From: a virus
Lineage: Duplodnaviria > Caudoviricetes
Strand: one strand, 5' to 3'
IMG/VR virus record: IMGVR_UViG_3300017910_000654
Location: 1-56,825 of that record
DNA: 56,825 nt
The position numbers were made by a program, and so were the translations under genes. Of this stretch, positions 44 through 94 are shown piece by piece. A model generated the notes under the pieces. It was not told where the DNA came from and made no database searches. It saw only the letters and a program-made list of their open reading frames with translations. Each line of letters opens with the position of its first letter. Position 1 is the stretch's first letter.

Positions 44-94
44 TCCGTCTATGGATGTGTGTCCATACTGATGAGACCGAAAGGTCGAAACGGA
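44..94 (+). ncRNA. Type III hammerhead ribozyme 1
   Basis: Stem III TCCGT/ACGGA, GTC cleavage triplet (C49), stem I TATGGA/TCCATA with loop TGTGTG, core CTGATGA, stem II GACC-GAAA-GGTC, GAAA. Confidence 0.95.

Follow-up and report, generated by a model that had tools for sequence, protein, structure and literature searches.

What does a short intergenic element that carries the letters of a hammerhead ribozyme do near the start of a tailed phage genome? The question is raised by positions 44-94 of the IMG/VR record IMGVR_UViG_3300017910_000654 (Duplodnaviria; Caudoviricetes). This linear record has an estimated completeness of 94%, and its entire length of 56,825 nucleotides (nt) is called the window in the following. 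An earlier sequence-only reading of the window had proposed that 44-94 is a canonical type III hammerhead which lies between genes of the early region and likely processes early mRNA. We find that 44-94 is very probably a real self-cleaving hammerhead. The role which we consider likely is that it cleaves itself within a long phage transcript and thereby processes polycistronic mRNA independently of the host. Intergenic hammerheads of phages and prophages have been known since 2011 and 44-94 adds a member to them. What is added beyond this member is a sharply defined class, a hairpin fused to the upstream side of the ribozyme, the retention of the ribozyme behind one gene across a clade of ~59-kb phages and the finding that Rfam annotation is blind to the class.

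The hammerhead core at 44-94 and its relatives

The element and its immediate surroundings consist of the following parts, where stems, loops and core motifs were read from the sequence.

24-43, plus strand: GC hairpin of 8 pairs (G24.U43 to U31-A36) with the loop UCAA, seen in the fold of 1-125 and flush against stem III
44-94, plus strand: type III hammerhead ribozyme, identified by sequence, RF00008 alignment, minimum free energy (MFE) fold and covariation in relatives
44-48 with 90-94, plus strand: stem III, with the pairs U44-A94, C45-G93, C46-G92, G47-C91 and U48-A90
47-49, plus strand: cleavage triplet G47 U48 C49, in which the unpaired C49 is position 17
49-50, plus strand: predicted scissile bond C49/U50, following the family rule of a cut 3' of N17
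50-55 with 62-67, plus strand: stem I, six Watson-Crick pairs
56-61, plus strand: loop I, UGUGUG
68-74, plus strand: core CUGAUGA
75-78 with 83-86, plus strand: stem II, GACC with GGUC
79-82, plus strand: loop II, GAAA
87-90, plus strand: core GAAA
95-120, plus strand: A/U-rich leader of 26 nt between ribozyme and start codon, with no Shine-Dalgarno sequence
121-312, plus strand: downstream gene with its ATG at 121, an open reading frame (ORF) of 63 amino acids without family assignment, 93.7% identical to the ORF after the hammerhead in the closest relative, L094

The conserved core is complete, with C68 U69 G70 A71 U72 G73 A74, G87 A88 A89, the pair A90-U48 and a C, not a G, at position 49. 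Core, three stems, loop I and loop II are all found where the sequence-only reading had placed them, and its distance of 26 nt from the hammerhead end (94) to the next ATG (121) is correct, with the ORF 121-312 on the same strand. Both in the Infernal alignment and in the MFE folds, loops close stems I and II and only stem III is open to the flanks, and therefore the element is of type III, as had been claimed. By the family rule, the cut is predicted 3' of C49 and would leave a 2',3'-cyclic phosphate and a 5'-OH.

The Rfam model RF00008 (Hammerhead_3) aligns end to end (model positions 1-54) at 42-96 with 44.1 bits. The E-value of this match is 1.5e-8 for a search of 400 nt and 2.1e-6 for the whole window, both strands and all 4227 families. 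The comparison with Rfam hammerhead models, which the sequence-only reading had named as a check, gives a full-length and significant match, with a score below the gathering score of 48.5. Because of this score a default Rfam scan of the window is silent on 44-94 and lists only a tRNA. The shortfall lies in a gap of 4 positions in the stem II loop and in unpaired outer positions of the 7-pair stem III of the model. Judged by its letters and predicted pairs, 44-94 has the structure that defines a type III hammerhead and falls short only of the operational score cut-off of Rfam.

The MFE fold of 40-100 is the three-stem hammerhead junction. When 1-125 is folded, the upstream hairpin and the ribozyme are both kept and a weak A/U hairpin appears in the leader (z=-3.11; 2 of 200 shuffles). 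The bare core pattern occurs six times in the window with 3.09 matches expected, and 9 out of 100 shuffles reach six. The core words alone prove nothing, since they are not found beyond chance, and the weight of the case rests on the complete covariance-model match together with the covariation in relatives.

Four other viral contigs share with the window the identical 24 letters that run from the core across stem II to GAAAC, and all four are Hammerhead_3 matches (35.3-43.6 bits) with different, still paired stem I sequences. A class pattern in which only GUC, UGUGU in loop I, CUGAUGAG and CGAAAC are fixed, and stems and loop II are free, matches at least 119 viral contigs. From the matches listed we took 123 instances including the window. 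Collapsing 36 copies that are identical over the hammerhead and 8 nt on each side left 87 unique copies among the matches listed, in the following the 87 listed copies. Stem I is paired at all six positions in 87 of 87, with 57 distinct stems, and stem II at all four positions in 87 of 87, with 14 distinct stems. In the alignment of the class (A1), standard pairs fill 94.3% of the cells compared with 64.2% in shuffles, and the covariation score of 0.807 (0.200 in shuffles) is reached by none of 500 shuffles. Changes on both sides occur in 13 of the 16 pairs, in 479 cells versus 141.6 in shuffles, and pairing falls to 31-40% when the 3' partners are slid by 1-3 columns.

The loops are also constrained. 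Loop II of the 87 listed copies is AAAA in 57, GAAA in 12, CAAA in 6, UAAA in 5, AAGA in 4, GUUA in 2 and GAGA in one, so that its final A is invariant (87/87) although the pattern leaves it free. With loop I set free in a second pattern, 107 out of 118 unique matches are of type III, and their loop I reads U-GUGU-R in 60 and U-GAGU-R in 27. Based on sequence, the class is defined by the loops UGWGUR and NAAA, a stem I of 6 base pairs (bp), a stem II of 4 bp and a short stem III. In the excerpts of Chi et al. (PMC2553840), a tetraloop that caps stem II and has A as its last letter makes the tertiary contact of the sTRSV class with a U that follows a 6-bp stem I, next to position 1.6. The loop features of our class agree with this contact as given there. 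44-94 has the corresponding GAAA tetraloop (79-82) ending in A and U56 after a 6-bp stem I, and by analogy its loops I and II may make the same contact. A text search of PMC8128436 found no short loop motifs of the sTRSV hammerhead.

A covariance model of the class (R1) was built from A1. In 80 loci selected by protein similarity, 101 of its 104 matches score 39.8-79.7 bits and the other three 16.6-21.4 bits. Every copy checked scores under the Rfam cut-off, and for this reason routine annotation misses the class. The class-specific model separates the copies cleanly where standard Rfam misses them, which matters for annotation. Five related near-complete genomes have one or two Hammerhead_3 matches each.

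Could 44-94 nevertheless be a chance match, or a decaying remnant without present function? The score under the gathering cut-off and a bare core motif that is no rarer than chance would fit, as would the nearest GenBank phage, MW202828.1, which gives no match in the 20.9-kb stretch searched. The window-wide E-value, the canonical letter at every core position and the retention behind one gene at 39-53% protein identity speak against it, and both chance and decay are contradicted by the compensatory changes in L094 and across the 87 listed copies. We regard this explanation as extremely unlikely.

The same hammerhead class was also seen in at least 120 stretches of bacterial genome assemblies (loci L298-L377), mostly of Patescibacteria, among them metagenome-assembled genomes of Saccharibacteria, Parcubacteria and Paceibacterota, with up to four copies within 1.5 kb. 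Among the matches listed there are 87 unique genome-assembly copies, with a perfect stem I in 85, a perfect stem II in 87, an upstream hairpin in 54 and an ATG 12-40 nt downstream in only 22. Together with the viral contigs, of which there are at least 119, these stretches form a ready comparative set.

Besides the class itself, the related phage loci contain many further type III-like elements (for example L026, L029, L111, L117, L127 and L144), in which U.U or A.A replaces the core-side G-C pair of stem II and the cleavage triplet is often GUA or GUU. Among 173 unique copies, A17 occurs with U/U in 24 and with G/C in 20, and C17 with U/U in none. This sample was gathered through patterns with GUC and G-C, and the association is not established by it.

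The conserved upstream gene and the hairpin between gene and ribozyme

The order of elements in the class is stop codon, GC hairpin, hammerhead, leader and ATG. In all five copies that were read first, the GC hairpin ends 1-2 nt before stem III, and the start codon follows 14-34 nt after GAAAC. Defining an abutting hairpin by dG <= -7 kcal/mol, 5 or more pairs and a gap of 2 nt or less, we found one against stem III in 64 of the 87 listed copies versus 58 of 870 random 40-mers of the same loci. Downstream, 12-40 nt beyond GAAAC, 78 of the 87 listed copies have an ATG that starts an ORF of 30 codons or more, compared with 146 of 870 random positions. On the other side, a long upstream ORF stops 10-65 nt before GUC in 76 of the 79 listed copies for which a long upstream ORF was found.

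In the closest relative, L094, the three small ORFs after the ribozyme have 93.7, 98 and 97% amino acid identity to those of the window, and the GGACT protein has 95%. Its ribozyme occupies the corresponding site, and compensatory changes in stems I and II have kept both of them paired. The gene upstream of it is a 344-codon ORF (1596-2630) which ends ~40 nt before GUC, and the same 63-amino-acid gene comes after. The claim that 44-94 is intergenic and on the sense strand holds in this comparison. In the window the record end cuts the upstream gene:

56365-56823, plus strand: 5' part of the conserved upstream gene, 153 codons, with 66% identity (tblastn) to L094 1596-2039

The continuation of the L094 homologue would end just before position 1, and the real genome therefore probably has ~600 nt between the two record ends. 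Apart from these missing ~0.6 kb, the linear record probably represents an almost complete genome, either circular or circularly permuted.

A homologue search with the single upstream protein returned the query alone. An alignment of 11 homologues (A2) was then used for an alignment-based search, which gave 80 loci fetched by protein similarity alone, with 39-53% identity apart from the query. A type III hammerhead by our own descriptor lies within 120 nt after the stop of the upstream gene in 67 of the 78 evaluable protein-selected loci. This is a lower bound, as at least one locus, L276, was missed through an ORF-extension artefact and the covariance model finds its ribozyme. Furthermore, a hammerhead is found at most 60 nt before the ATG of the upstream gene in 14 out of 68 loci, and on both sides in 13. 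In the 80 loci and the window R1 gives 106 matches at E<=0.1, all of which are on the gene strand. By these sequence comparisons, the hammerhead is retained behind one conserved gene across a clade of ~59-kb marine phages, down to ~40% protein identity. The conserved position (67/78 loci) and the gene-strand orientation of all 106 matches also support the role in mRNA processing that the sequence-only reading had suggested.

The upstream gene itself (~330-344 amino acids) has no sequence or profile match in Pfam, PHROG or PDB. Its AlphaFold model has a mean predicted local distance difference test score of 68.7, and the weak Foldseek matches (best E=1.2e-3, template modelling score ~0.25) are all among glutamine-synthetase-like carboxylate-amine ligases. 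We take a possible kinship to these ligases as a lead only.

The hairpin before the ribozyme is one copy of a repeat, GGTGTC-N6-GACACC, which a pattern scan finds 10 times in the window with 0.05 matches expected:

25, 711, 1034, 1585, 2646, 5754, 6669, 36581 and 56326: hairpin repeat copies, of which the copy at 36581 is on the minus strand
48809: doubtful hairpin repeat copy

The copies at 711, 1034, 1585 and 2646 have a ~45-nt consensus in common and stand ~25 nt before start codons without a ribozyme. Ribozyme-free copies reach ~13 pairs. The copy at 36581 is followed by a T run and resembles an intrinsic terminator. In related phages the apical sequence of the repeat is kept and the lower stem covaries. 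The type of hairpin depends on the phage: those with Shine-Dalgarno sequences have a plain GC stem with a tetraloop, and the clade of the window has its own repeat.

These features would fit a different order of importance, in which the hairpin is the primary signal, to be read as a phage-specific promoter or terminator or bound by a protein, and the ribozyme does no more than trim transcripts at this signal. It could, for instance, take off a 5' leader, so that a newly initiated mRNA begins with a 5'-OH, or clear up read-through. The number of copies far above expectation, the common 45-nt consensus ahead of the early genes, the conserved apex above a covarying lower stem, which resembles a recognised signal, and the terminator-like copy at 36581 are in its favour. 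However, stem III starts 1 nt after the hairpin, and a transcript initiated at or just after the hairpin would lose part of the ribozyme. Moreover, the Shine-Dalgarno phages of the class place unrelated simple GC tetraloop hairpins at this site, which argues for a generic structural role. The hairpin at 24-43 also does not have the form of an intrinsic terminator, as it is followed by UCCGUC and the ribozyme without a U run. A U run is present at 95-100, after stem III, and is missing from the class members read individually and from most other aligned copies. In a scan of 1-7200 no terminator-like site was found before 2133, and no strong sigma-70-like promoter was reported at 1-120, in a scan whose coverage does not extend to promoters of Bacteroidota or of phage polymerases. 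Compared with an RNase III site, which has a stem of about two turns, the hairpin beside the ribozyme is short with 8 pairs, and the comparison is a functional one only. Taken together, we consider it unlikely that the hairpin is the primary signal, and keep the reading of the ribozyme as the processing element.

The repeats also coincide with irregularities in sequencing data. DNA contigs of the run X1 break at hairpin repeats (712-1750 region), and in two RNA-library runs (X18, X19) a contig joins 2675 to 1750 via 7 other letters. Because contigs break and rejoin there, relatives are distinguished by rearrangements at the repeats, and these may be places where gene cassettes recombine.

The second hammerhead and the likely processing of the transcript

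The window holds a second hammerhead on the plus strand, which follows the GGACT gene:

2686-3753, plus strand: GATase/GGACT fusion gene, near the conserved upstream gene and preceding the second hammerhead
3760-3785, plus strand: hairpin of 11 pairs with the loop UUGA in the fold, directly 5' of the second hammerhead
3786-3832, plus strand: variant type III hammerhead, located via the second L094 match
3788-3790, plus strand: GUC of the second copy, read from the sequence like the following parts
3791-3796 with 3803-3808, plus strand: stem I (GAUAGG/CCUAUC) around the loop UGUGUG
3809-3815, plus strand: CUGAUGA
3816-3825, plus strand: reduced stem II, with an A.A mismatch and two G-C pairs around a GAAA loop
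3826-3829, plus strand: GAAA
3853-3945, plus strand: 30-codon ORF, starting 20 nt after the second hammerhead, no family found

RF00008 gives this copy only 26.1 bits (E=9.4e-4 in 201 nt), and the whole-window Rfam scan does not detect it. The class model R1 was built without this copy and scores it at 56.8 bits (E=3.4e-14). The second copy is also found at this site in L094, where stem I differs in sequence and is still paired. A scan for the stem II variant found 34 contigs. They contain 19 unique copies, and in 17 of these stem I pairs perfectly, with many different sequences; the other two look like chance matches. The sequence-only reading was right about the parts of the first ribozyme and had omitted this second hammerhead, the hairpin fused to stem III, the Rfam shortfall and the phage precedent of 2011.

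The second copy bears on the question of how constant the cleavage is. Instead of a constitutive cutter, the element could be a tunable switch, in which competition between the lower stem of the hairpin and stem III, or weakened copies, would set the ratio of cut to uncut RNA and thereby gene dosage. Two partners are indeed open to C45-C46, namely G92-G93 in stem III and, underneath the hairpin, G21-G22. Stem III is partly lost from the centroid fold of 1-125. The second copy has been conserved although it has an A.A mismatch beside the core and no more than two pairs in stem II. In the excerpts of Perreault et al. (PMC3088659) it is also suggested that phage variants may be regulated or slower. 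The MFE fold, however, keeps hairpin and hammerhead both intact, no ligand-binding domain or long alternative helix is apparent, and stems I and II are perfect in 87 of the 87 listed copies, as for efficient cutters. A switch is therefore quite unlikely in our view.

Two sense-strand hammerheads 3.7 kb apart could also act as a pair, cutting at 49/50 and 3790/3791 and excising an RNA with a 5'-OH and a 2',3'-cyclic phosphate, which would be circularised, or whose flanks would be spliced, by the reverse reaction or by an RtcB-type ligase. In 13 of the 80 protein-selected loci the conserved gene is bracketed by two hammerheads, and the stem III strands are short and similar, so that cross-pairing is possible (in the window CUCUG with CGGAU through one G.U). 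Selection for such cross-pairing is not seen: neighbouring copies have on average 2.10 (circle) and 2.27 (splice) cross-pairs compared with 1.88 for random pairs of different loci, and at least 3 cross-pairs in 11 of 30 and 12 of 30 compared with 5503 of 19134 random pairs. According to the excerpts of Perreault et al. (PMC3088659), spliced or circular products were sought and none were found. The run contigs contain no back-splice joint at these positions, and contigs are poor evidence either way. Excision followed by joining is thus very unlikely; if it were true, the RNA between 49/50 and 3790/3791 would have ends joinable by an RtcB-type ligase or the reverse hammerhead reaction. Equally improbable is the wider proposal that the hairpin-hammerhead unit is a portable, host-independent mRNA end-forming cassette of the ~59-kb marine phage clade, and apparently of many Patescibacteria too, with bracketed RNAs joined as circles or as spliced forms that skip genes.

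For the likely role, processing of a polycistronic transcript by self-cleavage, we infer cleavage, the fate of the new ends and the benefit to the phage from the sequence and fold, covariation, fixed layout, synteny and sense orientation computed here. The element would be transcribed within the sense strand of a long transcript that spans the non-structural arm. The three-way junction would fold, with the final A of the loop II tetraloop docking on the U of loop I next to the 6-bp stem I, and the hairpin, lying directly against stem III and able to stack on it, may stabilise this short helix of 5 bp until cleavage occurs. The RNA would then cut itself between C49 and U50 without a host enzyme. 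The predicted upstream product is the mRNA of the conserved gene of 330-340 amino acids, ending in hairpin 24-43 and UCCGUC with a 2',3'-cyclic phosphate, and the hairpin should make this end resistant to 3' exonucleases. The first nucleotide of the downstream product would be U50, which would carry a 5'-OH and be base-paired within stem I from the outset. Because the type III topology pairs U50 in this stem, the downstream mRNA would have no single-stranded 5' tail for 5'-end-dependent decay, and RNases of that kind would find neither a 5' phosphate nor a free tail. After the folded ribozyme would come the unstructured A/U-rich leader and the ATG at 121. In this way neighbouring cistrons of one transcript could be parted into individual mRNAs, each with a stability and translation of its own.

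Three RNA libraries (X18-X20) and one DNA run (X1) were compared with window 1-4000, in the form of assembled contigs, which cannot show RNA ends. RNA-library contigs of 95-99% identity cover parts of 2040-3750, for which carry-over of DNA is possible. At 54-93, contigs of X18 and X19, two seawater metatranscriptome libraries, contain a hairpin-hammerhead unit with different flanks, in which a GC hairpin immediately precedes GUC and the strand of stem III. Because the flanks differ, these pieces are a different hammerhead of another phage. Their contigs are continuous across the predicted cut site, and uncut RNA or carried-over DNA both fit.

Several points weigh against the processing role or against the hammerhead on which it depends. 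First, the RF00008 score of 44.1 bits lies below the gathering score, and none of the five related genomes has a Hammerhead_3 match above the Rfam cut-off either. The fold energy of 40-100 is unremarkable (z=-1.66), as 14 of 200 shuffles are equal or better. MW202828.1 has no hammerhead match at E<=0.01 in its 20.9-kb stretch, which covers the equivalent region, and the element is therefore dispensable in a relative. In 23 of the 87 listed copies there is no abutting hairpin by the definition used, so that the hairpin is frequent and not obligatory. Furthermore, the repeat stands before four or five other early genes of the window without a ribozyme, and because of these copies it must have a function of its own. 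The RNA-library evidence, consisting of assembled contigs, is neutral on cleavage. Finally, the proposed protection of the ends is based on how mRNA decays in bacteria generally, as known for the most part from E. coli and B. subtilis and not from the probable Bacteroidota host.

The plus-strand arm of the genome carries a primase with a BT4734-like N-terminal domain, a SNF2-type helicase, a PD-(D/E)XK exonuclease and the GGACT-domain protein, and the minus-strand arm carries the terminase, portal, virion proteins and GroEL. From the gene content of the plus arm it is plausible that the hammerhead lies in the early region; that part of the earlier claim goes as far as this content suggests. 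Further features of the minus strand are:

13885-23202, minus strand: 3105-codon ORF in the structural arm, without a sequence match in Pfam, PHROG or PDB
52095-53705, minus strand: GroEL-like chaperonin (PHROG 5725, E=9e-131)
54620-54694, minus strand: tRNA-Arg with the anticodon TCT, the only tRNA of the window

We had considered the 3105-amino-acid ORF as a candidate virion RNA polymerase that uses hairpin promoters; the ORF has no Pfam, PHROG or PDB sequence match, and the candidate was dropped.

A megablast of window 1-3000 against GenBank phages gave no match. MW202828.1, the nearest GenBank phage, has 71.7% identity in the primase, and phages of Flavobacterium, Polaribacter and Cellulophaga are more distant. 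Because the nearest phage matches are of these kinds, the host is likely a member of the Bacteroidota. The absent Shine-Dalgarno sequence and the A/U-rich leader at 95-120 are consistent with such a host.

Known hammerheads and processing sites

The proposed outcome resembles that of the RNase III sites between the early genes of phage T7. There, cuts between the cistrons divide a polycistronic early transcript, and a stem-loop left at the 3' end protects the upstream product. In T7 a host protein cleaves a long double-stranded stem, which gives a 5' phosphate and a 3' OH, whereas 44-94 belongs to a different family and its predicted self-cut leaves a 5' OH and a 2',3'-cyclic phosphate.

Synthetic insulators of the RiboJ type consist of a type III hammerhead and a hairpin ahead of the ribosome-binding region, and define the 5' end of an mRNA independently of the upstream sequence. 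Their added hairpin is downstream of the ribozyme. In contrast, the hairpin at 24-43 is upstream and would stay on the 5' product, and the element is natural and conserved.

With RF00008 and the sTRSV class, 44-94 has in common the same 13-nt core, the three-helix junction with an open stem III, the 6-bp stem I followed by a U and the 4-bp stem II with a GNRA tetraloop. It differs in being located within the mRNA of a double-stranded DNA phage and not in a circular satellite or viroid RNA, and its presumed role is mRNA processing instead of resolving rolling-circle multimers. Unlike the RF00008 consensus, its stem III has only 5 bp and its loop II is 4 nt shorter, and the short loop explains why its score lies under the gathering cut-off.

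Our literature search found no paper on a hairpin fused to a phage hammerhead or on this loop class; the supplementary alignments of 2011 were outside this search and we do not claim that the class is unpublished. It may already be contained in those alignments (Dataset S1, PMC3088659).

A precedent for the position is HHphage of the haloviruses HF1/HF2, which is also an early-region hammerhead of a tailed double-stranded DNA virus and lies 13 nt before a start codon (PMC3088659). The 5' end of a transcript has been mapped there to within 3 nt of where the ribozyme cleaves (PMC3088659). HHphage differs from 44-94 as a structural variant that needs high salt or Mg2+, in its archaeal host and in its location at the head of a transcript instead of between genes, and the excerpts of PMC3088659 report no fused upstream hairpin.

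Finally, hammerheads that flank prophage genes were described by Perreault et al. 2011 (PMC3088659). As given in the excerpts of that paper, three tandem arrangements cleave in vitro and one of them, the triple hammerhead of A. tumefaciens, also in E. coli. Type II is very common in bacteria, and clustered prophage examples of types I, II and III are figured there. Like 44-94, these elements are intergenic, on the sense strand and sometimes paired around one gene. The class described here differs from that set, as far as excerpted, in its type III topology, in loops that are confined to UGWGUR and NAAA and in the hairpin that is joined to stem III, and the pipeline of that study rejected mispairs at 10.1-11.1 and would have excluded the second copy of the window. 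The role of genome-encoded hammerheads in bacteria and phages is still called open in the excerpts of a review (PMC6765202). Perreault et al. 2011 (PMC3088659) proposed that such hammerheads process long phage transcripts into gene- or operon-length mRNAs, and from the fixed layout of the present class a specific model follows that can be tested: cistrons would be separated by the ribozyme, and the RNA would be structured at both of its new ends.

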